IMG/VR virus record: IMGVR_UViG_3300043443_000226
Source of the DNA: an uncultured virus (IMG/VR IMGVR_UViG_3300043443_000226)
Taxonomy: Duplodnaviria > Heunggongvirae > Uroviricota > Caudoviricetes
DNA: 64,000 nucleotides
Strand: one strand, 5' to 3'
The position numbers and the translations under genes are program-made. Shown here in pieces: positions 5,594 through 57,520 of this stretch. Within the stretch, counting starts at the first letter, position 1. Every line of letters begins with the position of its first letter. Below the pieces are notes generated by a model. That model saw only the letters and a list, made by a program, of their open reading frames with translations. It was not told the DNA's origin and ran no database searches.

Positions 5594-7195
5594 GTGAACT
5601 ACTTAGCCACTCATGTTGGCTGTGATGATTGTGGATCTAGTGATGCGTTGTCCGTATCTGTTAACGATAAAGGAGAAACTTGGTCACACTGTTTTGCTTG
5701 TGGTACGAATACGAAAATAGATGTTGATAACTTCAGACAAAAGCATACAAAGCCTGCTAAGGTGATTCCAATGTTAGATGGTAAGTATCAGTCCATACCG
5801 CTAAGAAACCTATCCAGAGATGCATTAAAAGCCTTTGGTGTGATGATCACTGATGAGGGTGGTGTAGCTTTCCCCTACTGTGATGCTGATGGTAAGGTCA
5901 CTGCCTACAAGGTAAGACATGATGCAATGAAGACTGATTGCACCATCAAAGGTGATTGGTCTAAGGCAGGTTTATTTGGAGCGCAGTTATTCGCTAAAGG
6001 TGGTAAGAGCATCACTATCACTGAAGGTGAGTTTGATGCTGTTGCTGTCTATCAGATGAATGGTATGCGGTATCCGGTAGTAAGCATACGCAATGGGGCA
6101 CAATCAGCACTAAAGGACTGCAAGGACAACTATGAATATCTTGACTCTTTTGAAACCATTGTTATCAGCTTTGATGCTGATGAAGTTGGTAAGCAGGCTG
6201 CTACGAAGGTAGCTGATCTATTCGGTGCTAAGGCTAAGATAGTAAAGCACAGGCAACCACACAAGGATGCTAATGACTATCTCAAAGATGAGATGATCAA
6301 GGAGTATATCCAGGATTGGTTTGCTGCTGAAGTCTATGTACCTGATGGGATCATCGAAGGATCAAAGCTTTGGGAAGAGATCAACACACCAGCCATTAAA
6401 GCCTCTTGTGACTATCCATGGGTAGGTCTTAATGCGTTAACTTATGGTATCCGTAAGGGTGAGCTGGTGACGTTTACAGCAGGATCTGGACTGGGTAAAT
6501 CACAGGTACTGAGGGAGATTGTTTACCACATCCTATGTAAGACTGAGGATAACATTGGCTTGATGTTCCTGGAGGAGTCTACTGTTCGCACTGCCAAAGG
6601 TATCATGTCTATCCATGCTAACAAGCCACTGCATCTACCTGACACAGCGTACACTGATGAGGAGTTTAGAGATGCCTTCGAGCACACTCTTGGCACTAAT
6701 AGGGTTTATCTTTTTGATCATTTTGGGAGTACATCAATTGACAACATACTATCAAGAGTCAGATTCATGGCTAAAGGACTCGGATGTAGCTTTGTTGTGT
6801 TGGATCATATTAGTATTGTCGTCAGTTCTGGCGATGTTGGCGATGAACGTAAAGCATTAGATGAGATCATGACCAAGCTTAGGATGATTGTTCAGGAGAC
6901 AGGCATAGCACTGTTGATTGTCAGTCATCTAAAGAGACCTGATGGTAAAGGCCATGAAGAAGGAGCAGCTACTTCACTAGGTCAGCTTCGAGGATCTGGT
7001 AGCATTGCACAGTTGTCTGATATGGTGATCGGTATGGAAAGGAATGCACAGCATGATGATGAACGTGAACGCAATACCACCAGGATTAGGGTACTCAAGA
7101 ACCGTTTCAGCGGTGTCACAGGTCCAGCCTGTAACGTCTATTACAACCACTCAACAGGAAGGTTATCAGAGGTCACACAAGATGAAGACTTATGA
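5594..7195 (+). CDS. T7 gp4-like primase-helicase
   Basis: N-terminal CxxC..HCFAC Zn finger, TOPRIM ITEGEFDA and DAD, Walker A AGSGLGKS, LDHISI, LRGSGSIAQLSD, KNRFSG. Confidence 0.95.
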   Translation: MNYLATHVGCDDCGSSDALSVSVNDKGETWSHCFACGTNTKIDVDNFRQKHTKPAKVIPMLDGKYQSIPLRNLSRDALKAFGVMITDEGGVAFPYCDADGKVTAYKVRHDAMKTDCTIKGDWSKAGLFGAQLFAKGGKSITITEGEFDAVAVYQMNGMRYPVVSIRNGAQSALKDCKDNYEYLDSFETIVISFDADEVGKQAATKVADLFGAKAKIVKHRQPHKDANDYLKDEMIKEYIQDWFAAEVYVPDGIIEGSKLWEEINTPAIKASCDYPWVGLNALTYGIRKGELVTFTAGSGLGKSQVLREIVYHILCKTEDNIGLMFLEESTVRTAKGIMSIHANKPLHLPDTAYTDEEFRDAFEHTLGTNRVYLFDHFGSTSIDNILSRVRFMAKGLGCSFVVLDHISIVVSSGDVGDERKALDEIMTKLRMIVQETGIALLIVSHLKRPDGKGHEEGAATSLGQLRGSGSIAQLSDMVIGMERNAQHDDERERNTTRIRVLKNRFSGVTGPACNVYYNHSTGRLSEVTQDEDL

Positions 7196-8560: not shown

Positions 8561-8740
8561 ATGTGGGTAATGGATAGGCTGTTAGCTGACCATGCAGAGC
8601 TAAAGAAGAAGTATGATACACTGCTAGAAGACTATCAGAAACTGGTACACAAATATGAAGAGCTTAGTGCTGGACATCGAAACAGACATGAAGCAGACTG
8701 TTATCTTCTGCGTAGTCACGAAGGATCTGACAACAAGTGA
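8561..8740 (+). CDS. Coiled-coil micro-protein overlapping the pol start (59 aa)
   Basis: MWVMDRLLADHAELKKKYDTLLEDYQKL...; AAGGAG RBS. Confidence 0.55.
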   Translation: MWVMDRLLADHAELKKKYDTLLEDYQKLVHKYEELSAGHRNRHEADCYLLRSHEGSDNK

Positions 8741-10295
8741 GGTGGTATGTCATACTCATCCAAGTACACTAAAGCCTCTTATAGAGGATTACGACACAGT
8801 GATAGGACACAATCTAATCAGCTTCGACGGTTACCACCTTCGGAGATTGTGGAACATTACGATACCACTCAAGAAGGCCTCCGATACGCTCGTGCTGTCG
8901 AGGCTATGGAATCCCAGTATCGAAGGAGGACACAGTCTAGAAGCATGGGGGAAAAGATTAGGGAATCACAAGATTGAGTTCCAAGACTTCACTGCTTTGA
9001 CACAAGAGATGATTGATTATTGTATTCAAGATGTCAATCTTACTGGTGAACTTCACCGCAAACTATGCGTAGAATTGAAGGACTTTTCACCGCAAAGCAT
9101 TGACCTCGAACACAAGGTACAGTTTATCGTCGCACAGCAGGAAAGACATGGATTCAAACTAGACATCCCTTTATGTACTGAGTTTATCTCTCAGTTAACT
9201 ACGAAGTTATCAACCATTGAGGAGAATCTACAGACTATATTCCCACCAATTATCACTGAACGTGTTAGTGAGAAGACAGGTAAGAAACTAAAGGATCATG
9301 TTGAAGTGTTTAATCCAGGCTCCAGAGATCAGATAGGACGTAGACTGACATCGTTAGGTTGGAAGCCTGAGAAGTTCACTGAGACAGGTAAGCCAATGGT
9401 GGATGAAGTGATCCTGTCTAAGTTACCTTATCCAGAAGCTAAAGCAATGGCTGAGTATCTACTTATCCAGAAGCGTATAGCACAGTCCTCATCGTGGCTA
9501 GAGCACGTTGCTGCTGATGGTAGAGTACACGGTAAGGTCATCACTAACGGTGCTGTCACAGGTCGTATGACGCATCACAGCCCTAACATGGCACAGGTCC
9601 CTGCTGTCAATGCTGACTACGGTGAAACATGCAGACAAGTATGGACTGTAGATCCTGGTAATGTCTTAGTTGGTTGTGATGCTTCAGGGTTAGAACTACG
9701 TATGTTAGCTCATTACATGAAAGATGATGAGTACACAAAGGAGGTTATCAATGGGGATGTCCACACTAAAAACCAGCTCGCTGCTGGTCTTGAGAGTAGG
9801 GCGCAAGCAAAAACGTTCATCTATGCGTTTCTCTATGGAGCAGGGCCGGCTAAGATTGGATCAATTGTACAAGGGAGTGCCGAAGAGGGAAAAAGACTCA
9901 TTTCCAGCTTCCTTAAGAATACGCCAGCTCTCAAAACGCTTAAAGATAAAGTTAGCAAGTATGCAGAGAAAGGGTATTTACCTGCCCTTGACGGTCGTAG
10001 ATTATGGGTACGGTCGGAACACGCAGCACTTAACACGTTACTTCAAGGGGCTGGTGCGATCTCTATGAAGCAAGGTCTGATCCACCTACACGAGTCACTG
10101 AAGAAACATAAGATACCTGCACACTTTGTTGCTAATGTCCATGATGAATGGCAGATAGAATGTCCTAAGCAGTATGCTGATGATGTTGGTAAACTCGCTG
10201 TAGCAGCTATTGAGAAGGCTGGTGTTACCTTGGGTTTACGTTGTCCTCTAACTGGTGAATATAAGGTAGGAAACAACTGGAAGGAAACACACTGA
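8655..10295 (+). CDS. T7-like family A DNA polymerase
   Basis: Exo LDIETD and GHN; motif A DASGLELR, motif B KTFIYAFLYG, motif C VHDEWQ. Confidence 0.96.
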   Translation: MKSLVLDIETDMKQTVIFCVVTKDLTTSEVVCHTHPSTLKPLIEDYDTVIGHNLISFDGYHLRRLWNITIPLKKASDTLVLSRLWNPSIEGGHSLEAWGKRLGNHKIEFQDFTALTQEMIDYCIQDVNLTGELHRKLCVELKDFSPQSIDLEHKVQFIVAQQERHGFKLDIPLCTEFISQLTTKLSTIEENLQTIFPPIITERVSEKTGKKLKDHVEVFNPGSRDQIGRRLTSLGWKPEKFTETGKPMVDEVILSKLPYPEAKAMAEYLLIQKRIAQSSSWLEHVAADGRVHGKVITNGAVTGRMTHHSPNMAQVPAVNADYGETCRQVWTVDPGNVLVGCDASGLELRMLAHYMKDDEYTKEVINGDVHTKNQLAAGLESRAQAKTFIYAFLYGAGPAKIGSIVQGSAEEGKRLISSFLKNTPALKTLKDKVSKYAEKGYLPALDGRRLWVRSEHAALNTLLQGAGAISMKQGLIHLHESLKKHKIPAHFVANVHDEWQIECPKQYADDVGKLAVAAIEKAGVTLGLRCPLTGEYKVGNNWKETH

Positions 10296-16321: not shown

Positions 16322-16495
16322 ATGCCGAATATATGGGGTTGGTCTTTTCTATCAGGGTTTATGTTAGGGATTTGTTACTCTGATGATTTTGTCGTAGCTG
16401 ACGAGGACGGATCTGAGGTTCTTTTGGAAGGGTTCTTTGTCTTCATCAACATTGCCATGTTCAGTTTTGTTGTTGGATGGGCTAAGGAGGAATAA
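16322..16495 (+). CDS. 57-aa hydrophobic protein antisense to the endolysin 3' end
   Basis: MPNIWGWSFLSGFMLGICYSDDFVV...FFVFINIAMFSFVVGWAKEE; TAAGGA RBS. Confidence 0.55.
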   Translation: MPNIWGWSFLSGFMLGICYSDDFVVADEDGSEVLLEGFFVFINIAMFSFVVGWAKEE

Positions 16496-16936
16496 TGTCG
16501 CCTCTGCTTCACGACGAAGAACAAGACCTCTGGTTACTTTACCTGCTGCAAGATTCCAACGCTTTAGTTCTTGAACAGCTTCCTCCCATCGTTCTTGGTT
16601 TATTCTTGTTCGCATCGTGGATGATCGGAGCCTAGCTGGTCCTAAGTTGTAAGTCCAGCTAACTATGGCAGCAGCTTTGTTAGGGTGTTTCGTCAACACT
16701 GGACAGGCTTTGTAGACTTGAAGTAGGAATCTCTCTGCATCAAGTTCAAACAATGCCTGTCCTCTTTCTTTTGAGATCTCAGGATCATCTAAGGTAACCC
16801 TATCACCGTTCTCATACATCGTAGATCCCCAACCTATGGTGGGGACGTTAGCACTGCATAGATAGGGTTTACTTCTCCAGCCTTCGAATCTCTTGATCAG
16901 TGGTTCAGCAATGGCGATTACTTCTTTGATTCCCAT
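16364..16936 (-). CDS. Endolysin, GH24 lysozyme
   Basis: FEG..PYLC...PTIGWG, YNLG, GLVLRREAE. Confidence 0.92.
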   Translation of the reverse strand: MGIKEVIAIAEPLIKRFEGWRSKPYLCSANVPTIGWGSTMYENGDRVTLDDPEISKERGQALFELDAERFLLQVYKACPVLTKHPNKAAAIVSWTYNLGPARLRSSTMRTRINQERWEEAVQELKRWNLAAGKVTRGLVLRREAEATLFLLSPSNNKTEHGNVDEDKEPFQKNLRSVLVSYDKIIRVTNP

Positions 16937-17382
16937 ACCCTACCAACAAACCAAAAAGTTAGAATCAATGACAACATACCTTCATCGTAGTCAGTCCATC
17001 CTGATAACAACACTGATGTCCATGAACCATCCTGAAGAAAAGCTAGATATAGTCCAGCAGCTTTGACAACTGAATAAAAGAATACAAACCAGTACGTCAC
17101 TGCTGGTCTAACCAAAGCAGATAGCGATGCTACCCACTTCCAAGCCTTGCTGTCAGACTCTGCTTGTTGTTTGAATGCTTCACCGATAGCATCTAACTCA
17201 TGCTCTTGTAGACGTTGATGTCCCTGCTGTAAAGCAAACTCTGCCTGCATCTTAGCAATGGAGACTTCAACATCTAACTTCTTTAGTTCATGCTCTCTTT
17301 CAAACTTCCTATCTAAGATCTTTAAGACTTCAGGAGCAAGACGAAAGACACCACCGATCAGAGCACCAATGAGTTCAAACAT
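16918..17382 (-). CDS. 3TM-holin-like membrane protein
   Basis: SALVRPAVTY...ILTFWFVGR; upstream of the endolysin; homolog at 57041..57520. Confidence 0.7.
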   Translation of the reverse strand: MFELIGALIGGVFRLAPEVLKILDRKFEREHELKKLDVEVSIAKMQAEFALQQGHQRLQEHELDAIGEAFKQQAESDSKAWKWVASLSALVRPAVTYWFVFFYSVVKAAGLYLAFLQDGSWTSVLLSGWTDYDEGMLSLILTFWFVGRVWESKK

Positions 17383-19591
17383 TAGCAAATTCTCCCATGA
17401 TCTGACGAACAATACTAGGGGACATAGAACTTACATTAATACCTCTTTTCTGTAGTTCTTGTTTTATCTCATCTAGAGATGGTCCTGGCTCTACAGGTGA
17501 GGTTGTAGGTAATTGTTGTATAGATTGATCTTCTGGTGTCTCTGGTGATATTTGAGGACCAGCACGAAGAGCCATAGCACCTGTATACTTACCAACAGCT
17601 TCAATACCACGCTGAATAACTTCTGCTTTTGGTTTCTTTCTTTGAGCTTCTTTTAACGCATTGTTTATGTTAGGATCAAAGAATACTTCAGACAAAGCCT
17701 TTGGAGAAGCAACATAGTCAGCTAAACCTTTAATACTGTCTGTTAAGATCTTAACTAAGTTACCAGACTGTGCTGTACCACCTAATGCCCTAGTAGTGGC
17801 GTAAGCCTCACCACCGGACATCATAGAAGGACCACCTGCTCTTCCTTCAGACTGTAAAGCCTTTTGCATAAAAGACATTGCTTTGATAGCATCTGCCTTG
17901 TCTGCTGCTGTTGGGAACAAGAAGTTAAAGTCACCAGACTGAATACCTTTTAGGGCTGCTTGGATGTTAAAGGTAGGTGTGTTCGCAGCAGCACCTTTGA
18001 TGTCTGCTTTGTTAAGTACATCTTGAAACAAGATACCACGTACTTGATTAGCTACATCAGGTGCTTGTTGACCTAGTGTGCTGAATACAATAGCTTGTTG
18101 TGATTTAGGAAGTGTTGATAACTTCATAGCAACATCTTCAGGAACTAAGTCAGTAACTCTTTCTACATCAAAAGTCTTAGTAATAGGATAGTTAGCAAAC
18201 TCCTCAATCTTGTCTATGTTTTTAGCAAAATTGTCTCTTGCTGCTTTCAAACGATCTGCTCCAGGAACACCTTGATCAATAGCTAAATCTAAAGCATCTT
18301 TGTAGGCTCTTAAAACCTGTCTAGCAAAGTTCTTTACCTGTCCTTGAGCAACACCAGCGAACATATCACTACCACCAACATCAGCTAAGGAGCCAGCACC
18401 TTTAAAGGCTGCTTCGCCCCATGCTGATATGTTCTTCTGTAAACGATCAATATCAATATTTCTTGCTCTATCAGGAACAGCAGGAACTACTGTAGTTGTC
18501 GCTGGTTGTCCACTAGGACCAAGAACTGTTGACTGAACAGTCTGTGCTGGTTGTCCAGGCTCTACAAACTCTTCTCTAATTTTTCTAAGAGCTGCAATAA
18601 AAGAAGAGTTCTGTGGTGTCTCTGGTCCTAACTGAGATAACTGTTGATCTACCATCTGCAATACAGGCGTAGTATCAACTAAACCACCAGCGTTCTTTGC
18701 AGCAGCAAAGTCTCTTTTAGCTTGTGACTTAAGTTGTCCTGATAAAGCAGATCCAAAGTTATTAAATGACGACCATACTTGGTTAGTCAACGCAACAGGA
18801 TCAACATTCATATCCCCTGCTCTGTTAAACAAACCAGTTAAGTAGTTACGGACATCAGAGGCTTGCTGTATGTCAAATTGTCTTGGGAGTTCTCCGCTTT
18901 CTGGTGCAGCACGAACACGTTCTTCCCTAGCCAGTTGTTGGCGATTACCTGTAAACTGTCCTGGTGTAAGTCTACCTACATCAAGGACACCAGTATCAGC
19001 CGGTGTTCGCATACCTTCAGGTTTTAACAACTGACTTCTACCAGCTCTTAAACCACTAGCAATAGCGTATGGAGAAGCCTGTAAAGCAAACTGTGCAGCA
19101 GGAGAATCAGGTGCTATTGTACTTGCAGCTACGCCTGTAGCACCGGCTACAGGAGCCTCTATAGCAGCAGCGCCCATACCAGCCCTGCCTGTAATACCAG
19201 GAAGACCAGCAGCAGTCAATGCAGCAGCGGGGGCAGCAGCAGCACCAAACTCATAAGCACCACGAAAACCTGGGATAGTGTTTAAGTCTACGCCGGATAG
19301 TTCTTTTACACCTTTAACCATACCTTGTGTTGAAAAGGCAGACGGGTCTTGCTTTTTCTTAAGGTAATCGTATAGGTTACCCCAACCACCAACAATGTCT
19401 AAAACACCTTTAGCACCACCTTTAACTAGAGATTCACCAAAGTCTCTTACGTTCTGTGTGAATGTCTTTTCTTGAGCTGGTTCAAACACAGATCTTTGGT
19501 TTTTTGCATCACCACCATAAGCGTTAGGATCAATTCCACGCCTACGCATTTCAGCTTCAATGGCTTGCATTTCCTCAAGGTTCATAGCCAT
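17375..19591 (-). CDS. Internal virion / ejection protein (738 aa)
   Basis: Ala/Gly/Gln-rich helical protein; third of three large genes after the tail genes. Confidence 0.6.
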   Translation of the reverse strand: MAMNLEEMQAIEAEMRRRGIDPNAYGGDAKNQRSVFEPAQEKTFTQNVRDFGESLVKGGAKGVLDIVGGWGNLYDYLKKKQDPSAFSTQGMVKGVKELSGVDLNTIPGFRGAYEFGAAAAPAAALTAAGLPGITGRAGMGAAAIEAPVAGATGVAASTIAPDSPAAQFALQASPYAIASGLRAGRSQLLKPEGMRTPADTGVLDVGRLTPGQFTGNRQQLAREERVRAAPESGELPRQFDIQQASDVRNYLTGLFNRAGDMNVDPVALTNQVWSSFNNFGSALSGQLKSQAKRDFAAAKNAGGLVDTTPVLQMVDQQLSQLGPETPQNSSFIAALRKIREEFVEPGQPAQTVQSTVLGPSGQPATTTVVPAVPDRARNIDIDRLQKNISAWGEAAFKGAGSLADVGGSDMFAGVAQGQVKNFARQVLRAYKDALDLAIDQGVPGADRLKAARDNFAKNIDKIEEFANYPITKTFDVERVTDLVPEDVAMKLSTLPKSQQAIVFSTLGQQAPDVANQVRGILFQDVLNKADIKGAAANTPTFNIQAALKGIQSGDFNFLFPTAADKADAIKAMSFMQKALQSEGRAGGPSMMSGGEAYATTRALGGTAQSGNLVKILTDSIKGLADYVASPKALSEVFFDPNINNALKEAQRKKPKAEVIQRGIEAVGKYTGAMALRAGPQISPETPEDQSIQQLPTTSPVEPGPSLDEIKQELQKRGINVSSMSPSIVRQIMGEFANV

Positions 19592-49891: not shown

Positions 49892-50124
49892 AGATTGACC
49901 AACAAAACCCAGAGAACTTGCAGAGCAGCTTGTTAGTTGCAGCGCACATGATTAGAAGTGCAGCGGGCTTAATCAAAGAACAACAAGCATTGATTGATGA
50001 ACTGGTTGAGGCCTTGTGGGGCATGGTTACCAGTTATCACGCAGTCGAATACATGGAAGACCATATGAAACAGTCATCAGCAAAGGCAAGAGCTGCCATT
50101 GAGAAAGCAAAGGGTAAACCATGA
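49888..50124 (+). CDS. Hypothetical protein ending ARAAIEKAKG
   Basis: ELVEAL...ARAAIEKA motif of small phage proteins. Confidence 0.75.
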   Translation: MKIDQQNPENLQSSLLVAAHMIRSAAGLIKEQQALIDELVEALWGMVTSYHAVEYMEDHMKQSSAKARAAIEKAKGKP

Positions 50125-50936
50125 GTGACCCATTCAAGATTAAAGAGCCGACTTGCATTAGCTTCAGCGGCGGGAGGACATCAGCTTATATGCTGTGGCG
50201 TGTCCTTCAATCCAATGGTGGGTTACCCGATGAAGCCATCGTGTGCTTTGCTAACACGGGCAAAGAAGAAGAAGCAACACTCAGGTTTATTCAAGATTGC
50301 TCGGAACATTGGCATGTAGACATTCACTGGCTCGAATACATGTCAGAAAATCCCATGTTTAAACGTGTTGACTTCAGATCGGCAGCACGAGAAGGTGAAC
50401 CTTACGAAGCCTTAATCAGAAAGCGTCAATATCTTCCTAATGCGGTGACTAGGTTTTGCACAACAGAACTCAAGATCAGGACAATCCACAAGTACTTAAA
50501 GTCGCTTGGTTGGGATCACAACGAAACGTCTGACTGGGTTGGAATCAGAGCAGATGAAATGAGAAGGGCGGCAAAGATTGACCGCTCCAGAACACCACTT
50601 GTGAGTGCTGGCGTTGATATTTATAAGGTCGATCAGTTCTGGACTGATCAGCCATTCAATCTTGACCTTCCAACTTACAACGGCAGAACGCTTGCAGGTA
50701 ATTGCGACCTTTGTTTCTTAAAGCCAGCTAACCAAATTTTTACGCTTATCAAAGAAAAGCCAGAACGAGCAATCTGGTGGGCAAGGATGGAGGCATTGGC
50801 ATTGGCATCTAAGCCGAGCGGAGCAAGGTTTAGAAAAGATCGCGCTGGATACGCAGAAATGCTTAAGTTCAGCGAGCAACAAACCGACATGTTTAGCGAT
50901 GATGAAGAAGCTATGGCTTGCTTTTGTGGAGACTAA
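50121..50936 (+). CDS. PAPS-reductase-family (PP-loop) protein
   Basis: ISFSGGRTS PP-loop, FANTGKE, RFCTTELK, VGIRADE, GNCDLCFLK. Confidence 0.85.
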   Translation: MSDPFKIKEPTCISFSGGRTSAYMLWRVLQSNGGLPDEAIVCFANTGKEEEATLRFIQDCSEHWHVDIHWLEYMSENPMFKRVDFRSAAREGEPYEALIRKRQYLPNAVTRFCTTELKIRTIHKYLKSLGWDHNETSDWVGIRADEMRRAAKIDRSRTPLVSAGVDIYKVDQFWTDQPFNLDLPTYNGRTLAGNCDLCFLKPANQIFTLIKEKPERAIWWARMEALALASKPSGARFRKDRAGYAEMLKFSEQQTDMFSDDEEAMACFCGD

Positions 50937-51822: not shown

Positions 51823-52067
51823 GTGGCAACCACAACATGAAACTCATTGCTAGCCTGGCGCAGGTCAATGACTTTGTAATGGTGCATGGCAATGAACTGC
51901 AAGCAATCCTGGACTATGTTCAGGATATGGAGCAAAGGATCAGCATTGTGCGTGAGCAACTACAGTATTTAGTTGCAGAATCTGTAGAACCTGATGCAGA
52001 ACTTGATTGCCCACCATGTAATCAGGACTGTAATCAAGGCAGAGACTGCCCTTCAAGGAAGGGCTAA
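51819..52067 (+). CDS. Small protein with C-terminal CPPCNQDCNQGRDCP
   Basis: GTGA coupling; N-terminal MSGNHNM matches MSGDHNM of 5023. Confidence 0.75.
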   Translation: MSGNHNMKLIASLAQVNDFVMVHGNELQAILDYVQDMEQRISIVREQLQYLVAESVEPDAELDCPPCNQDCNQGRDCPSRKG

Positions 52068-52405
52068 CCCCTCTTTCCTCCCAAAGACCCCCCTACCCCA
52101 AACAAGAACGGGGTAGAGAGGGGAGGTTCCTCCGCTGCAAGCAGCATCTCGATGTCAGTCTCCTGACCCCTCGGCTTCGAGATAAGACCAGCCGACCGGA
52201 TTCTTCGGGAACTGCCCCCTAGCCTTACGGCATACCGGCTATCCGCTTTCACTCCACGCAGCCACGGGTAAGGCTCTTGCTATCGTGCGGAGTACGGTCT
52301 GGTCAGAAACAAAAAAGCCGTTAAGGATGCCCCCTGGTGGTGATCCCTCTGGGGTAAGTAGAGGGCAGGGAACATGCTTAACGGCTCAATCTGCACCACA
52401 CAGAC
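52065..52405 (-). ncRNA. Putative structured antisense RNA (c4-like attenuator plus ~240 nt structured domain)
   Basis: Own promoter; 10-bp stem 52316-25/52377-86 with U-tract; further stems 52221-28/52268-75, 52146-52/52177-83, 52154-67 (GAGA loop), 52093-99/52110-16. Confidence 0.55.
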
Positions 52406-52411
52406 AACCTG

Positions 52412-52440
52412 ATCTTAATGGCAAACACCTTTTGATGCAA
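52412..52440 (-). promoter_or_regulatory. Sigma70-like promoter of the antisense RNA
   Basis: TTGCAT-N17-TAAGAT. Confidence 0.65.
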
Positions 52441-52497
52441 GCGGCAAAAACACGGCTAAAAAGCGGCAAATCTGGCAAACATGGCAAACCATTTGCC
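52420..52497. repeat. GGCAAA iteron-like cluster
   Basis: Copies at 52420, 52443, 52454 (GGCTAA), 52465, 52474, 52483 and inverted at 52492. Confidence 0.75.
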
Positions 52498-52542
52498 AAC
52501 CCGACGAACGGTAGATTACTAGCTATATACATATGTTCCTAG

Positions 52543-52552
52543 TGTGTATAAT
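52543..52552 (+). promoter_or_regulatory. Extended -10 promoter for the recombination operon
   Basis: TGTGTATAAT. Confidence 0.55.
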
Positions 52553-52584
52553 CACCAGTGTTGTACTTAACCAAAGGGGTAATC

Positions 52585-52833
52585 ATGAAACATTTGAAGT
52601 TAATCGAGTCCGATCTGTATGACATCAGGCTTAAGACCGTTCACATTATTGAGGGCTGCGCCAACATTCATCGAGTGCTTGCAAGTGATTGGGACTTTAT
52701 GTCTGAGTATCAGGTCAAGGTCATTGAACGCTTGATCGGTGAAGTTGAAGAACTGAAGCACATGCTCAACCACATTAAGAACCGTGATGCTCGCAAAGAC
52801 ATAAGCACTTGCTTTGATGAGGAGGCAGCATGA
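52585..52833 (+). CDS. Hypothetical protein
   Basis: AAGGGG RBS before MKHLKL. Confidence 0.7.
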   Translation: MKHLKLIESDLYDIRLKTVHIIEGCANIHRVLASDWDFMSEYQVKVIERLIGEVEELKHMLNHIKNRDARKDISTCFDEEAA

Positions 52834-53720
52834 CTAGCTTTGACACTGAGTCACGTAGGAAGGCTATCTGGGCCACCGACGCTCGCAAGATTGTTGATGG
52901 CCGTGCTGCTGATGTTTATTTGGAAAAGATAGGCCAGACAGAGCGTGAAGACATAAGCCACATTGAAGCAGTGCAATGGGGTTTGAAGTTGCAGGACGTC
53001 ATTGGCAGAGAAGCTAGTGCTCGCTTGCAGATGGAGCTCAAAGAAGCTGACTATGAGTTGTATCACCCTGAGCATTCATGGATGGCTAGTCACTTTGACT
53101 TCATTAGTGCTGATGGCACGACACTAGTCGAGGTGAAGAATTACAACCAATCTAAGAGGAATCAATATGATGCAGACACTGCACTTATGCCTGCGGCCGA
53201 CTCAGCGCAATGTGTTCATGAAGCTACGGTACATCGGGTACAGCGTATCGTACTTGCGGTGCTCTTTGGGGGACAAGAACTGGTACTTATCAACAAGGAA
53301 GTATCAGACGCTGAGAAAGACTCGCTCATACAACTGGAAGCTGAGCTATGGGGCGCAATACAGGCCAAGCAGCCTCCAAGCGCGACTACGGTGGATGCAG
53401 CGAGGAAACTCTTCCCCGTATCCACATCGGCTGGGGTTCTAGCTAATGCTCAGTTAGAACAAGCCTGCCAGCAATTAAAGGCGATCAAGAACCAGATTAA
53501 GCAGTTCGAGGAGGCTGAAGAGAAGCTACAAGGTTTCATCCAAGGGCAGATGAAAGAAGCAGGCTCACTCATCACCTTTGACGGCAAGGTGCTTGCAACA
53601 TGGAACAGTGCCAAAGGTTCTAAACGCTTTGATCCAAAGCTACTGCAAGCAGAGATGCCTGAAGTCTATGAGCGTTACATCGTTGAACAACCTGGCTCAC
53701 GGAGGTTTTTAGTCAAATGA
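52830..53720 (+). CDS. YqaJ-like viral recombination exonuclease
   Basis: RRKAIWATD, WMASHFD...LVEVKN, Q..H, LAVLFGG; C-terminal RFD...SRRF. Confidence 0.85.
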   Translation: MTSFDTESRRKAIWATDARKIVDGRAADVYLEKIGQTEREDISHIEAVQWGLKLQDVIGREASARLQMELKEADYELYHPEHSWMASHFDFISADGTTLVEVKNYNQSKRNQYDADTALMPAADSAQCVHEATVHRVQRIVLAVLFGGQELVLINKEVSDAEKDSLIQLEAELWGAIQAKQPPSATTVDAARKLFPVSTSAGVLANAQLEQACQQLKAIKNQIKQFEEAEEKLQGFIQGQMKEAGSLITFDGKVLATWNSAKGSKRFDPKLLQAEMPEVYERYIVEQPGSRRFLVK

Positions 53721-54565: not shown

Positions 54566-54756
54566 CGCAGACGCAGGCAGTGCTTGAGCGTTTGCAACAA
54601 GGAACGCTCACGCAACTGCAGGCTTACGCAGAGATTGGTTCAACAAGACTTGCAGCCAGAGTCGAAGAACTAAGAAAGCAAGGTCACACCATCGTGACAC
54701 ACACAATCAACCGTAATGGCAAATCCTTTGCCGAATATCAACTAGTGAGGAAATAA
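54562..54756 (+). CDS. Winged-HTH protein
   Basis: LTQLQA....GSTRLAARVEELRKQGH.I. Confidence 0.8.
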   Translation: MTQTQAVLERLQQGTLTQLQAYAEIGSTRLAARVEELRKQGHTIVTHTINRNGKSFAEYQLVRK

Positions 54757-56065: not shown

Positions 56066-56163
56066 CTCCGCTGAATCTGCCAGTAGGTTAAGCGCTTGAG
56101 GCAAGCGAGCAGATAGCCTCACCTGTTGTCTCCTTTGAGTTTAGCTCTTCCCGACGAGCTTTT

Positions 56164-56193
56164 ACCCCGTCATCACCGACGGGGTTTTCTTTT
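56164..56193 (+). terminator. Terminator of the phage B early arm
   Basis: ACCCCGTC-ATCACC-GACGGGGT then TTTCTTTT. Confidence 0.8.
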
Positions 56194-56576: not shown

Positions 56577-57044
56577 TTACCTCATCATCAATGCTTCAGC
56601 TTCTCGACGCTTAGTCAGCCCTGGTAGCACCCTGCCTGCAGCCTTGTTCCATTTGCGGCACTCCACTGCTGCGCCTTCCCAGTCATTGGCATCGATACGT
56701 TTCTTGAAGGTCGAGATTCTGTAGTTGCCTAAGCCACAGTTATACGCCCAACTGATGACTGCAGCAATACGTCTAGGGCTTGCAGAAACAAGCCGTGGTG
56801 AGAGTTTTACCAGCCCGGAAACGAAGTGCCTGACATGTTCCTGAAGGGCACTCTCAGCTTGTTCTTTTGTCCAGACAGTGTATTGCCTAATATCACGACC
56901 AGTAGCACCATAACCAATAGTCCAAGGGTCGCCACCAGTACCGGGGTCAGGATAAGCACAGCAATCGCCGTTAGGAAGACGTTTAGCATAGCCTTCAAAG
57001 GGCTTGATGAGTACGTTGATGGCAAGCTCAATCGCTTCATTCAC
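56577..57044 (-). CDS. Endolysin, GH24 lysozyme, phage B
   Basis: FEG...AYPDPG....WTIGYG, YNCG, GLTKRREAE. Confidence 0.92.
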   Translation of the reverse strand: MNEAIELAINVLIKPFEGYAKRLPNGDCCAYPDPGTGGDPWTIGYGATGRDIRQYTVWTKEQAESALQEHVRHFVSGLVKLSPRLVSASPRRIAAVISWAYNCGLGNYRISTFKKRIDANDWEGAAVECRKWNKAAGRVLPGLTKRREAEALMMR

Positions 57045-57520
57045 TTGTACTTCTCTATGCTGCGACCAACAAACCAAAACGTGAGAATCATGGTGAAGAG
57101 TCCAAAGTCATCTTCATCCCAACACTTCACGATTACTTCATGCCACGGTGCATTGCTTTGAAACGCAAGAACAAGCGAAGCCGCCTTGACTGCCGCATAC
57201 ATAGCAAAGATAGCCCAAGTAATGCCCGGACGAACCAGCGCTGAGATGCCAGCCACAAACCAACCTGCTGCTTGAGCCGTTTGACTCTGTTCTTCAAAGG
57301 CCGCTTTAATGGTGTCGAGTTGCTGAGCACTGTAGTCAACATACTTTTCCTCCATCTTAAAAGTGCCACGCATCTTCTCAAGATCGGTCTGCAACTGAAA
57401 CATGTTCAGCTCATGCTGGCGTTCGTTCTTCTTATCGAGGAACTTCAGAACCTCTGGAGCCAGTCGAAACAAACCACCAAAGATACTGCCAAGCAAACCA
57501 CCTGAAAGCAGGTCAAACAT
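57041..57520 (-). CDS. 3TM-holin-like membrane protein, phage B
   Basis: FRLAPEVLK...SALVRPGITW...ILTFWFVGR; homolog of 16918..17382. Confidence 0.7.
   Translation of the reverse strand: MFDLLSGGLLGSIFGGLFRLAPEVLKFLDKKNERQHELNMFQLQTDLEKMRGTFKMEEKYVDYSAQQLDTIKAAFEEQSQTAQAAGWFVAGISALVRPGITWAIFAMYAAVKAASLVLAFQSNAPWHEVIVKCWDEDDFGLFTMILTFWFVGRSIEKYK

Follow-up and report, generated by a model that had tools for sequence, protein, structure and literature searches.

A two-part structured RNA, absent from Rfam 15, is encoded by many uncultured phages

In the stretch of viral DNA that we analyzed (64,000 nucleotides; the window), positions 52069-52414 of the minus strand are a stand-alone non-coding RNA gene, which belongs to a large family that is absent from Rfam 15. 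The RNA is about 350 nt long and has two parts: a 5' leader domain of 110 nt (52305-52414) and a core of about 240 nt (52069-52308). We are nearly certain that this region encodes a real structured RNA on the minus strand. The family is carried by many uncultured freshwater-type phages. Its signature strand, the invariant 19-mer CTAGGGGGCAGTTCCCGAA (52204-52222, minus strand), has one site in the window, and in an exact-match scan it was found in at least 120 viral contigs and in 3 genome contigs. The matches listed yielded 118 unique extracts, or 101 clusters at 90% identity. In all five complete genomes, the RNA is present as a single copy.

The RNA lies in a gap of about 500 bp, as a first-pass annotation of this DNA had claimed; the gap (52068-52585) separates two sets of plus-strand genes. 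The neighboring genes in the window's phage (phage B) converge on the RNA, and no gene follows it there. The annotation had also called the RNA antisense. Since the RNA is intergenic, this label does not suit it: the sole contact is at the 3' tail (52075-52081, minus strand), which abuts the stop codon of the convergent gene (52065-52067). A rightward early promoter with the extended -10 element TGTGTATAAT (52543-52552, plus strand) was read from the sequence and is kept in the alignment of relatives; it provides a divergent context and lies outside the RNA. A BLAST search of 52040-52600 against phage and E. coli collections gave no match, and the exonuclease that adjoins the RNA locus has no relatives in genome contigs. 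For the neighboring 282-aa protein, the ESM Atlas gave only a lead: Rad52_Rad22 was present in 20% of the nearest cluster, and RecT was at rank 8.

To describe the core, we rely on its alignment in 80 relatives (alignment A1). The core has about 13 helices, including three pseudoknots, all on the minus strand. H0 (52296-94/52286-84) forms a pseudoknot with H1 (52293-87/52257-51); the loop of H2 (52275-72/52263-60) forms another (52267-64 with 52246-43); and S1 (52194-90/52176-72) forms the third with S2 (52183-77/52152-46). The other helices are H3 (52239-35/52199-95), the GNRA hairpin H4 (52231-22), H8 (52167-54), H9 (52145-34), H11 (52121-10/52099-88), and the tail helix (52126-22/52081-77).

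Covariation among homologs is strong in both the core and the leader. The core helices are 90.3% paired in the 80 relatives, compared to 41-50% for slid controls, and 34 of the 69 pairs change on both sides, with 657 such cells compared to 212 in shuffles. G-U pairs far outnumber A-C pairs in the RNA's helices (694 versus 126), so the minus strand is the RNA strand. There are 58 invariant columns in the core alignment, of which 19 were forced by the search word and 39 were not. Together with one in the leader, the three core pseudoknots bring those backed by covariation to four. The core also has conserved G-rich strands, and the G-rich 3' end that had been noticed on the RNA strand is indeed present. 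The first-pass annotation had named six pairings. Four of them (ACTCC/GGAGT, ATCTCGA/TCGAGAT, GTCAG/CTGAC, and CTACCCC/GGGGTAG) are kept by covariation, but AGCCTTAC/GTAAGGCT and the supposed long-range closure GACCAG/CTGGTC fail: they are 47% paired in the 80 relatives, which is the same as in the shuffled or slid controls. As for the GTCAG-GAGA-CTGAC hairpin, its stem covaries, but the GAGA loop is limited to the window's close kin and the hairpin varies elsewhere.

The leader has a small 5' hairpin, P1 (52404-52390), which is followed by a long hairpin. The outer stem of the long hairpin is P2 (52385-52377 with 52325-52317), and P3 (52373-52366 with 52336-52329) and P4 (52365-52360 with 52350-52345) lie further in. 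The P1 loop (52399-52394) forms a pseudoknot with a strand at 52342-52337, and a U6 tract (52316-52311) directly follows the long hairpin; all of these are on the minus strand. In 21 sequences, 98.4% of the cells in leader pairs are paired, compared to 34-49% for slid controls, the pseudoknot is 96.8% paired, and 22 of the 33 pairs show compensatory change. The leader model (R1) scores 119 bits in the window, and it also detects the domain immediately 5' of the core in 60 of 77 other loci. The P1 loop and its partner strand match over at least 6 nt in 38 of 47 distinct sequences. The 7-nt sequence of this pseudoknot varies between close relatives, as a specificity code might.

The earlier description of an attenuator-like leader is borne out by the hairpin and U6 tract at 52311-52385. 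In most of the 70 leaders that we folded, the U tract directly adjoins the outer stem, which is 100% paired in alignment A3. Like intrinsic terminators and attenuators, the leader has a G+C-rich stem that runs straight into 5-9 U, and going by its sequence, it is a putative intrinsic terminator. Unlike in intrinsic terminators, the stem encloses a branched insert (about 60 nt) and is tied to the upstream hairpin by the pseudoknot. The leader hairpin was not listed by the tool's terminator scan.

At the other end of the RNA, folds and word sharing point to a switch-like 3' module (52075-52133, minus strand). The motif GGAGGAA occurs as an internal copy (52133-52127) and as the identical 3' tail (52081-52075), on either side of CCUCC (52126-52122) and H11, and each copy can pair with the same C-rich strand. 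In 57 of the 80 minimum-energy folds, the strand immediately 5' of H11 is paired with the tail. For 62 of 67 distinct sequences, the internal copy has a word of at least 6 nt in common with its own tail; the mean length of the shared word is 6.99, compared to 5.13 for the tails of other sequences. By eye, we saw no partner for the repeated tail motif in the 5' leader.

The DNA past the tail is not conserved across relatives. The first 15 nt are 65% A+T, compared to 50% for the loci. In many relatives, an ORF with a ribosome-binding site begins within about 50-100 nt of the tail on the same strand, and by eye, about 8-11 loci have a hairpin with a U run and a promoter-like motif (TGTTAGACT) between the RNA and the next gene. 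Simple scans do not support a second promoter or terminator past the tail as a rule for the family: the promoter scan gave a mean of 7.0 versus 6.7 of 12 and no match of 10 or more, from scans that demand perfect stems and 16-18-nt spacers and may miss real sites.

Upstream of the RNA, a promoter-like site (52412-52440, minus strand) comprises TTGCAT (52440-52435), a 17-base spacer, and TAAGAT (52417-52412). Both boxes and the spacer of the leftward promoter that had been proposed are therefore present, but the site is weak (7/12 of the consensus) and was absent from the promoter scan. Relatives, however, usually have a sigma-70-like promoter at this position: of 58 distinct upstream stretches, 34 have a best match of at least 9/12, compared to 1 of 55 control stretches taken 300 nt further upstream. 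The iteron-like repeats are also real. Six GGCAAA/TTTGCC sites, without a strand and spaced by 9-23 bp, fall within 52420-52497; counting both strands, the whole 64 kb window has 52. The six are placed between the divergent promoters, with an overlap onto the promoter of the RNA, and the last two form the palindrome GGCAAA-N3-TTTGCC (52483-52497). At this position, relatives have a different 10-bp repeat, of the TTAGCGAGCC type. We looked for a protein that reads the GGCAAA repeats among the plus-strand ORFs within 4 kb, but no ORF co-segregates with the type of repeat: for every cluster of these ORFs, identity between repeat types reaches 93-100%.

Scanned with Rfam 15, 52065-52585 gave no match at an E of up to 1. 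In 8 + 10 further relatives, no family matched the core or the leader; the only match in the core region was to tRNA, in the insertion of locus L066. A check for a tRNA cloverleaf or tmRNA, by ARAGORN or the Rfam tRNA model, gave none in the window and, apart from the Rfam tRNA match to the insertion of L066, none over the RNA in 14 insertion-bearing loci. Rfam's RNAI and C4 families do not match the window's RNA region. Because there is no match in Rfam, the suggestion of an undescribed phage ncRNA holds: it is a promoter-driven, densely folded, non-coding RNA from the minus strand. The IMG/VR catalogue of candidate RNAs has models of 29-151 nt and, going by the accessible part of its description, may contain numbered pieces of the window's RNA (PMC10690425). 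The RNA libraries of four studies contain the stretch, as contigs only and with DNA carry-over possible. In one freshwater metatranscriptome, exact contigs span 51974-52395 and none span 52458-53400; these contigs show neither strand, ends, nor level, and the parts that they leave uncovered do not count as evidence.

The family varies in two ways. First, hairpin H4 carries an optional insertion (about 150 nt) in 14 of 94 cores. One of the 14 insertions, from L066, scores as an Rfam tRNA (33.7 bits), and in two of the 14 loci scanned (L065 and L076), tRNA genes lie just upstream of the RNA. Second, the core can be replaced. In 32 of 32 related loci, the slot behind the leader holds a non-coding filler and it is never empty: 24 fillers are of the window's type and 8 are of four other types, for five types of cargo. 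We confirmed the leader in all eight of the alternative-cargo loci tested. The neighboring exonuclease gene is 69-98% identical among phages with the five unrelated fillers. One of the alternative cargos holds Rfam RF02932 (Betaproteobacteria-1; 82 bits; loci L032 and L021). In bacteria, RF02932 is sporadic (8 of 151 genomes of one family), and its neighbors in seven bacterial loci include the transposon genes tniB/tniQ (3 loci), the PADLOC defense candidate PDC-S06 (1 locus), and HipA or IrrE/HTH. We considered a fixed link between Betaproteobacteria-1 and PDC-S06, but it was seen in just one of the seven bacterial loci. As read from the sequences, the promoter, the pseudoknot-locked terminator, and the exchangeable structured RNA would form a reusable natural cassette, and looking behind the leader is a direct route to further unknown phage RNAs.

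Our best reading, which we hold tentatively, is that the core is a trans-acting phage RNA that is made through the leader-terminator. A sigma-70-type promoter drives the 110-nt leader, whose long hairpin runs into a U tract in the manner of an intrinsic terminator and is locked by a pseudoknot of 6-7 bp to the loop of the small 5' hairpin. Transcripts that pass this hairpin carry the 240-nt core and then the 3' tail. The leader may be an attenuator that meters the amount of core. We predict that the core binds a conserved host or defense factor in trans, early in infection, for takeover or counter-defense, rather than serving as the leader of a gene. If so, this adds an RNA player to host takeover or counter-defense.

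Several observations favor a trans-acting RNA. It stands alone in the window's phage, where the next genes converge, and its structure, strand, spread, and position-conserved promoter are consistent with this reading, as is the leader directly upstream of the core in those 60 other loci. Near-identical phages swap the core for other structured RNAs, and one of these cargos (RF02932) is also found on bacterial transposons and defense-type islands. The optional H4 insertion, tRNA-like in L066, the tRNA genes by L065 and L076, and the presence of the stretch in RNA libraries, where DNA carry-over is possible, fit as well. On the other hand, the basis of this reading is context alone. The RNA is within a replication/recombination module in 44 of the 49 representative loci that have full 3-kb flanks, and it is co-oriented with replication genes in 21 of them. 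The ORFs with ribosome-binding sites past the tail in many loci would fit a leader or an origin equally well. Accessory anti-defense slots are often empty, but this slot was filled in 32 of 32 loci; and the RNA is single-copy in the complete genomes. Also, the bacterial contexts are for another type of cargo, not the window's core, and come from seven loci, and only one of the 14 insertions scores as a tRNA.

We consider it unlikely that the RNA is an RNA-primed or transcription-activated replication origin that works without a phage initiator, as with ColE1 RNA II or the c2-type PE1 transcript. The promoter may fire through the locus, and the folded G-rich RNA may hybridize persistently to its template or recruit a host loader. 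The 3' end of the RNA may prime host DNA synthesis, with the leader-terminator and the tail switch setting the timing or the copy number. There is likewise a small chance that this is a protein-independent, transcription-primed origin of a kind that is undescribed in Gram-negative phages: the knotted RNA would recruit host machinery or form a priming hybrid, the pseudoknot-locked terminator and the 3' strand-exchange switch would gate firing, and whole modules would be swapped as alternative origins. Such an origin would explain how DNA synthesis starts in small phages that lack replication genes.

The origin of lactococcal Ceduovirus (c2-type) phages is a real precedent. According to the accessible text of PMC7150918, this non-coding origin separates divergent blocks of genes and follows the first early promoter; it requires its transcript; three unrelated types of origin are found in phages that are conserved in other respects; and plasmids can replicate from it when no phage proteins are present. 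Also in favor of an origin, family searches (including Pfam and PHROGs) found no recognizable initiator, primase, helicase, or polymerase among the ORFs tested in 32-64 kb of the window, as had been claimed. (The SSB-like protein that was claimed for the early arm is not supported by Pfam or PHROGs.) A family A polymerase is missing from all five complete genomes, each with its one copy of the RNA. The slot is never empty, with five unrelated fillers in phages with similar exonuclease genes, and the RNA adjoins replication genes and is co-oriented with them; for instance, in the Variovorax locus L175, a DnaD_N/HTH_36 gene is beside the RNA. An origin would also fit the repeats with 9-11-bp spacing beside the promoter, the G-rich 3' end of the RNA strand, and the A+T-rich 15 nt past the tail, and the competition of two copies for a single strand is reminiscent of how ColE1 RNA II folds in alternative ways.

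Against an origin, the RNA in 21 of the 49 representative loci is next to an initiator-like gene, a primase/helicase gene, or a toprim primase gene, which shares its strand in every case. The proposal that the RNA substitutes for an initiator gene therefore does not hold as a rule across the family, and the mutual exclusion that it implied fails when tested, as these 21 loci carry both. The G runs are taken up in an RNA helix (helices 14 and 15), where C-G to U-G changes preserve the pairing, and the DNA past the tail is not conserved. The 58 invariant columns, with 19 forced by the search, and the four pseudoknots exceed the known needs of a primer. The alternative filler RF02932 is found in bacterial transposons and islands that need no origin; with transposon or defense genes beside it, this is no place for a phage origin. 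Finally, neither RNAI nor any other Rfam family matches.

It is improbable that the RNA is a regulatory leader or an immunity-type RNA, in which early leftward transcription would be attenuated at the pseudoknotted terminator. The core and the tail switch may then control the following genes, or act on sister transcripts in trans (compare put, P4 CI, and the countertranscripts of plasmids). Transcription from the early promoter, which overlaps operator-like repeats, meets this RNA before anything else, and a hairpin and U tract come right past the start. In many relatives, a same-strand ORF follows within about 50-100 nt of the tail, and these include initiator-like genes. The two-state pairing of the internal copy and the tail is conserved, and the code-like variation of the 7-nt pseudoknot also favors this reading. 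But the window and its 23 closest type-A relatives have no following gene, as the neighbors converge, and by eye, a hairpin/U run and TGTTAGACT part the RNA from the next gene in about 8-11 loci, which the scan did not confirm. The core comes after its own terminator in the transcript, which means that it cannot act in cis on that terminator. In phage B, family searches (including Pfam and PHROGs) showed neither an integrase nor a repressor, and there was no match to C4 or another Rfam family.

A ribozyme or self-processing RNA is quite improbable; its active site would be built from the conserved unpaired strands and the pseudoknots, with the optional tRNA-like arm as a handle for processing. 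Conserved strands, pseudoknots, and insertion-tolerant hairpins are typical of large ribozymes, and this RNA has 39 invariant columns that were not forced by the search (of 58), at least three pseudoknots in 240 nt, and a peripheral hairpin that tolerates a 150-nt insertion. Against this, it matches no ribozyme family in Rfam 15, it has no flanking exons or mobile-element ends, and the RNA-library contigs, which cannot show ends, gave no cleavage site, joint, or circular form.

We dismiss protein coding, whether by the 62-aa minus-strand ORF that overlaps the core (52064-52252), which had been raised as a possible cause of the conservation, or by another small ORF: of 97 relatives, 38 do have a stop-free stretch of at least 80 codons over the 19-mer in sense frame 0 and 40 have one in an antisense frame, and such ORFs were at first grouped by clustering in 41 and 34 loci, but the spacing of conserved anchors shows no preference for a codon phase (39/31/27 and 42/33/22 of 97 in the three phases), so the 62-aa ORF is not conserved and not a gene, it has a 1-nt indel among close relatives and no match in Pfam or PHROGs, a relative's translated ORF reads like low-complexity text, base-pair changes are compensatory throughout, and the 19-mer is identical at all positions over 101 clusters, unlike synonymous drift.

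Whatever its role, this is a compact RNA with four covariation-backed pseudoknots and long invariant strands, and it is present in well over 100 uncultured phage genomes, yet it is not in Rfam. RNAs of this kind have in the past proved to be ribozymes, riboswitches, or RNA machines.

Among known systems, ColE1 RNA II shares several traits with the window's RNA: each is untranslated, folded, and driven by a promoter, and each has G-rich parts and pairings that exclude one another. In the window's family, the promoter is conserved in position and there is no conserved reading frame. The window's RNA differs in that its G runs are paired within the RNA, it is from a phage and not a plasmid, and it has no match in Rfam. 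As far as the accessible account of the Ceduovirus PE1 transcript goes (PMC7150918), the window's RNA resembles it in being non-coding, behind an early promoter, and between divergent gene blocks (given the plus-strand promoter at 52543-52552), in having unrelated types in one slot of near-identical phages (here, five in 32 loci), and in belonging to a phage with few or no replication genes. A counterpart to the second early promoter of that system was seen by eye in about 8-11 relatives but was not enriched in the scan, and the window's genes converge. Also, no likeness in sequence to the Ceduovirus transcript is expected, the Ceduovirus hosts are Gram-positive, and the c2 origin was shown by plasmid assays, while the window's RNA is only a candidate origin; and the window's core is kept across very diverse phages, often beside initiator or primase genes.

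According to the part of PMC5737381 that is accessible, GOLLD and ROOL are phage- or prophage-borne RNAs of unknown function with multistem junctions and pseudoknots, often near tRNA genes. Similarly, the window's family has pseudoknots, tRNA genes adjoin it in two loci, and a tRNA-like arm is nested in one. However, at about 350 nt, the window's RNA is shorter than GOLLD and ROOL (580-800 nt), its host range differs, and it has a fixed leader-terminator in front; the GOLLD and ROOL models had no match in the Rfam scans of the window and its relatives. RF02932 occupies the same slot behind the same leader in L032 and L021, and it is also an orphan structured RNA, of Betaproteobacteria. It does not resemble the window's core in sequence or structure, and while RF02932 is in bacterial mobile elements, the window's core is found almost only in viral contigs (at least 120, versus 3 genome contigs).

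A gap at 52068-52585 separates two plus-strand gene sets in the window (TAA stop of the upstream gene, 52065-52067; start of the downstream gene, 52586). Within this gap, the minus strand encodes a structured RNA (52069-52414), which consists of a 110-nt 5' leader and a core of ~240 nt. The element matched nothing in the phage and E. coli collections. Using the neighboring exonuclease as the query, we found 54 loci in viral contigs, many of which are 77-99% identical to the window in the gap. Aligning these sequences revealed an invariant 19-mer and plainly visible compensatory changes. The 19-mer alone matches at least 120 viral contigs and three genome contigs, from a Variovorax genome, a Burkholderiales MAG, and a cyanobacterial MAG. 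(The cyanobacterial match does not align past the 19-mer, and we consider it to be chance.) The 151 matches gave 140 full extracts, and the 118 unique extracts formed 101 clusters at 90% identity, which makes this a large, diverse family. A single exact word was used to collect it, and this forces 19 of its 58 invariant columns. Each of five complete genomes of ~60 kb carries exactly one copy of the RNA, and none of the five has a family A polymerase. The copy in the Variovorax genome is located beside a Tn3 insertion, with an IrrE-like peptidase and a DnaD_N/HTH_36 gene nearby.

We cut 94 cores from the 101 representatives (80 of 215-254 nt and 14 of 352-418 nt) and aligned the 80 short ones. 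The core structure, which we drew by eye from covariation and wrote onto the window sequence, has 13 helices and 69 pairs. Three helices cross others: H0 with H1, the H2 loop with the strand 3' of H1, and S1 with S2. Covariation among homologs was clear, with standard pairs in 90.3% of 5,425 cells, versus 41-50% if the partners are slid by 1-3 columns and 78% if columns are shuffled. Both sides change in 34 pairs (657 such cells, versus 212 in shuffles), and none of 500 shuffles matched the observed paired cells, cells with both-sided change, or covariation score. Helices 1, 3-6, 8, and 9 (H0, H2, the H2-loop pseudoknot, H3, H4, S1, and S2) are 96.6-100% paired with compensatory changes. The two outer pairs of H1 (which are window-specific), H8, and the tail helix are less well backed; in these parts, MAFFT misaligned the variable hairpins. 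The GGGGG/UUCCC helix is invariant and so is uninformative about pairing either way.

G-U cells outnumber A-C cells in the core alignment (694 versus 126), and pairing in the core structure is 90.3% for the window's minus strand but would be 79.9% for the other, so the minus strand is the folded one. Four of the helices drawn in the first-pass annotation correspond to H1, S2, H8, and H11 and are supported. Its AGCCTTAC/GTAAGGCT and GACCAG/CTGGTC pairings do not hold up: they are 47% paired, no better than controls. Instead, AGCC pairs locally in H2, and GCC-GUAA-GGC forms a separate hairpin, H4.

The leader lies between the promoter and the core. It forms a small hairpin (P1) and a long hairpin (P2-P3-P4), whose outer stem is directly followed by U6, and the P1 loop pairs with an unpaired strand within the long hairpin to form a pseudoknot. 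In an alignment of 21 leaders, pairing is 98.4% for the structure as a whole (versus 34-49% if slid) and 96.8% for the pseudoknot, and compensatory change is seen at 22 of 33 pairs. The P1 loop matches its partner strand over at least 6 nt in 38 of 47 distinct sequences, and the mean match is 5.85, versus 3.39 with partners swapped between sequences. The words themselves are highly varied (GUAGAAG/CUUCUAC, GUCGAAG/CUUCGAC, GUGGAAA/UUUCCAC, and others). Our covariance model of the leader (R1) matches the window once (52305-52414, 119 bits). It also detects the leader on the core's strand, immediately upstream of the core, in 60 of 77 other loci. The leader hairpin is absent from the terminator scan's listing because that scan has a loop limit of 8.

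The leftward promoter that had been proposed, TTGCAT-N17-TAAGAT, is present but weak (7 of 12 matches) and was not listed by the promoter scan. Relatives have much better sites at the equivalent position, often with TTGACA. Over a 57-nt stretch made up of 45 nt upstream of the leader and its first 12 nt, the relatives' mean best match was 8.9 of 12; matches of at least 9 occurred in 34/58 relatives versus 1/55 controls, and matches of at least 10 in 23/58 versus 0/55.

Beside the promoter, six GGCAAA/TTTGCC sites fall within 52420-52497, versus 52 on both strands of the whole window, and the periods given by Tandem Repeats Finder (TRF) are 9 and 11. A palindrome, GGCAAA-N3-TTTGCC (52483-52497), is made up of the last two sites. 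A second copy of the palindrome, at the end of a 64-aa winged-helix gene (54718-54732), is possibly a second operator for the factor that reads the first. Relatives carry a different 10-bp repeat at the equivalent place, and no plus-strand protein within 4 kb tracks the repeat type. The repeats look like putative operator or iteron sites.

The leader also precedes other non-coding sequences. All 32 exonuclease-family loci with a located leader have a non-coding filler past the U tract: 24 have the window's type and 8 have one of four other types. R1 confirmed the leader in all eight alternative-cargo loci that we tested (87-123 bits). The type C filler, behind which lies an HNH-type ORF, contains Rfam's RF02932 (Betaproteobacteria-1; 82 bits, E = 1e-13). 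Type E and the window's core have the first pseudoknot module (H0-H2) in common and differ beyond it. Types B (L001, L033, L039, L041), D (L016, L018, L019), and E (L010, L029) are GC-rich, span 300-400 nt just past the leader's U tract, and contain no ORF of at least 100 aa and no Rfam match; they are likely to be further undescribed structured RNAs. Types B and C have their first ~80 nt in common.

RF02932 itself is sporadic in bacteria. It was present in 1/151 genomes of an order-wide sample and 8/151 of one family, and a class-wide sample centered on the positive genome from the order-wide sample contained no other carrier (1/151). The neighbors at seven bacterial loci (L179 and L187-L192) include tniB/tniQ (3 loci, one of which also has an adjoining HipA/HTH gene), a PADLOC PDC-S06 candidate (1), IrrE/HTH (1), and RdgC (1). 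The loci that we inspected are mobile-element cargo regions. In L179, RF02932 (8010-8132, minus strand) is directly upstream of an 88-aa ORF and the 735-aa PDC-S06 gene, a candidate defense gene with AAA_13 that is distantly PrrC-like and adjoins a gene for a HAD "Swiss Army Knife" RNA-repair domain.

At the 3' end of the core, the tail reads GGGUGAA in most members and GGAGGAA in the window. In 57 of 80 minimum-energy folds, the tail pairs with a C-rich strand immediately 5' of H11. A word identical to the tail lies just upstream of that strand. The tail and this internal copy co-vary between lineages: in 62 of 67 cases they have a common word of at least 6 nt, and the mean is 6.99, versus 5.13 with partners swapped. 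Two equal strands that compete for one partner are the signature of a conformational switch. Also, 14 of the 94 cores lack the GNRA hairpin H4 and have ~150 nt on a long stem in its place. One such insert (L066) scores as a tRNA (33.7 bits; Rfam's threshold is 29), the other 13 have no Rfam tRNA match at E ≤ 1, and ARAGORN called no tRNA in the inserts. L065 and L076 have tRNA genes just upstream of the RNA.

The window contains two different phage genomes or genome parts. Phage A (~1-31 kb) encodes a primase/helicase (5594-7195) and a family A polymerase (8655-10295), and also an exonuclease subunit, thymidylate synthase, and ribonucleotide reductase; phage B (~32-64 kb) lacks them all. Both have a similar pair of endolysin and phrog_6637 genes (16364-17412 and 56577-57520). 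The RNA is in phage B, whose structural and lysis genes lie on the minus strand and whose 7.4-kb early region is on the plus strand. Recognizable early proteins are a GP88-family protein, a PAPS-reductase-like protein, a YqaJ/RecE-like exonuclease, and a RusA-like resolvase, along with small HTH and zinc-ribbon proteins; for a 282-aa early protein, the nearest named Atlas clusters, Rad52_Rad22 and RecT, are a lead only. As the first-pass annotation stated, phage B has no recognizable replication initiator (no initiator, primase, helicase, or polymerase family matched), but the SSB-like protein it reported in the early arm was not found. The PAPS-reductase-like gene (50121-50936, plus strand; phrog_424, 1.1e-43) adjoins the GP88/DUF7227 protein and may function in DNA modification or as an auxiliary gene. 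Where the rightward early operon ends (56119-56192, plus strand), a UGUCUCC motif, a hairpin, and a U run have sub-threshold Rfam matches to Betaproteobacteria_toxic_sRNA (25.9 bits) and anti-hemB (22.5 bits). L001, L010, L016, and L039 have the same weak matches at the equivalent place, and this is probably a conserved terminator module or small RNA.

We clustered and annotated the ORFs within 3 kb of the RNA in 98 representative loci. (ORF clusters that overlie the RNA, in 41 and 34 loci, were read as a by-product of nucleotide conservation.) Replication genes are present in 29 loci (initiator-like in 12, primase/helicase in 9, toprim primase in 8), always on the RNA's strand. Exonuclease or annealase genes are in 47 loci, mostly divergent from the RNA, and resolvases are in 25. 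Full flanks are available for 49 loci; at least one replication or recombination gene occurs in 44 of these and a replication protein in 21. Thus, the RNA is part of a replication/recombination early module, and the first-pass annotation's test of mutual exclusion with initiators fails.

In the window and its kin, the genes beyond the tail converge on the RNA. In other relatives, a short hairpin and then a ribosome-binding site and ORF lie downstream of the tail. By eye, ~8-11 loci have a hairpin with a U run and then a promoter motif of the TGTTAGACT type. Simple scans failed to establish a second promoter or terminator past the tail as a general feature. In L056, L058, L060, L065, L089, L091, L111, L142, L144, L145, and L153, an AAAC(C/Y)NCGTGTTAGACT motif occurs 60-100 nt past the tail, and a ribosome-binding site and ATGGACAA come 20-30 nt after it. 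This looks like an extended -10 promoter of the next gene in one subfamily.

Twenty public runs contain part of the gap stretch, and 7 are on record as RNA; we looked at four RNA libraries from four studies. A freshwater metatranscriptome has window-identical contigs over 51974-52159 and 52140-52395 and none over 52458-53400. These contigs reveal neither strand nor ends nor level, and some DNA could be present; they are a weak hint that the leader and core are on one RNA.

Weighing this evidence across the origin and cis-leader readings, we therefore favor a diffusible, folded RNA that would be made early in infection through an attenuating leader, at somewhat below an even chance. The existence of the RNA is established, and its role is inferred. 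An RNA-primed replication origin, as first proposed, ranks second and seems unlikely. The Ceduovirus origin is a precedent (in the accessible text of PMC7150918), the slot is always filled while the type of filler varies, and the RNA is single-copy, sits among replication genes, has a G-rich 3' part and a switch-like module, and belongs to a phage without a recognizable initiator. However, initiators and primases often co-occur with it, its G runs are locked in an RNA helix, the DNA beyond the tail is unconserved, the conserved architecture far exceeds the known need of a primer, and an alternative filler (RF02932) lives in transposons. A regulatory or immunity role is third and more doubtful; ORFs close behind the tail in many relatives would suit a cis-acting leader, but the window's lineage has no following gene. 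A ribozyme comes fourth and is improbable. Conservation through coding is very improbable: the 62-aa ORF has no family match, a 1-nt indel within it separates close relatives, and distances from the 5' anchor to the 19-mer (42/33/22 of 97) and from the 19-mer to the 3' G-run anchor (39/31/27 of 97) fall in all three phases.

The RNA matched no Rfam 15 family, in agreement with the earlier suggestion that it is undescribed. The accessible portions of PMC5737381, PMC10690425, bioRxiv 10.64898/2026.09.22.753630, and PMC7150918 do not describe it. In its accessible portion, the IMG/VR catalogue of candidate RNAs (PMC10690425) has models of 29-151 nt, and it may list pieces of this RNA without a name.
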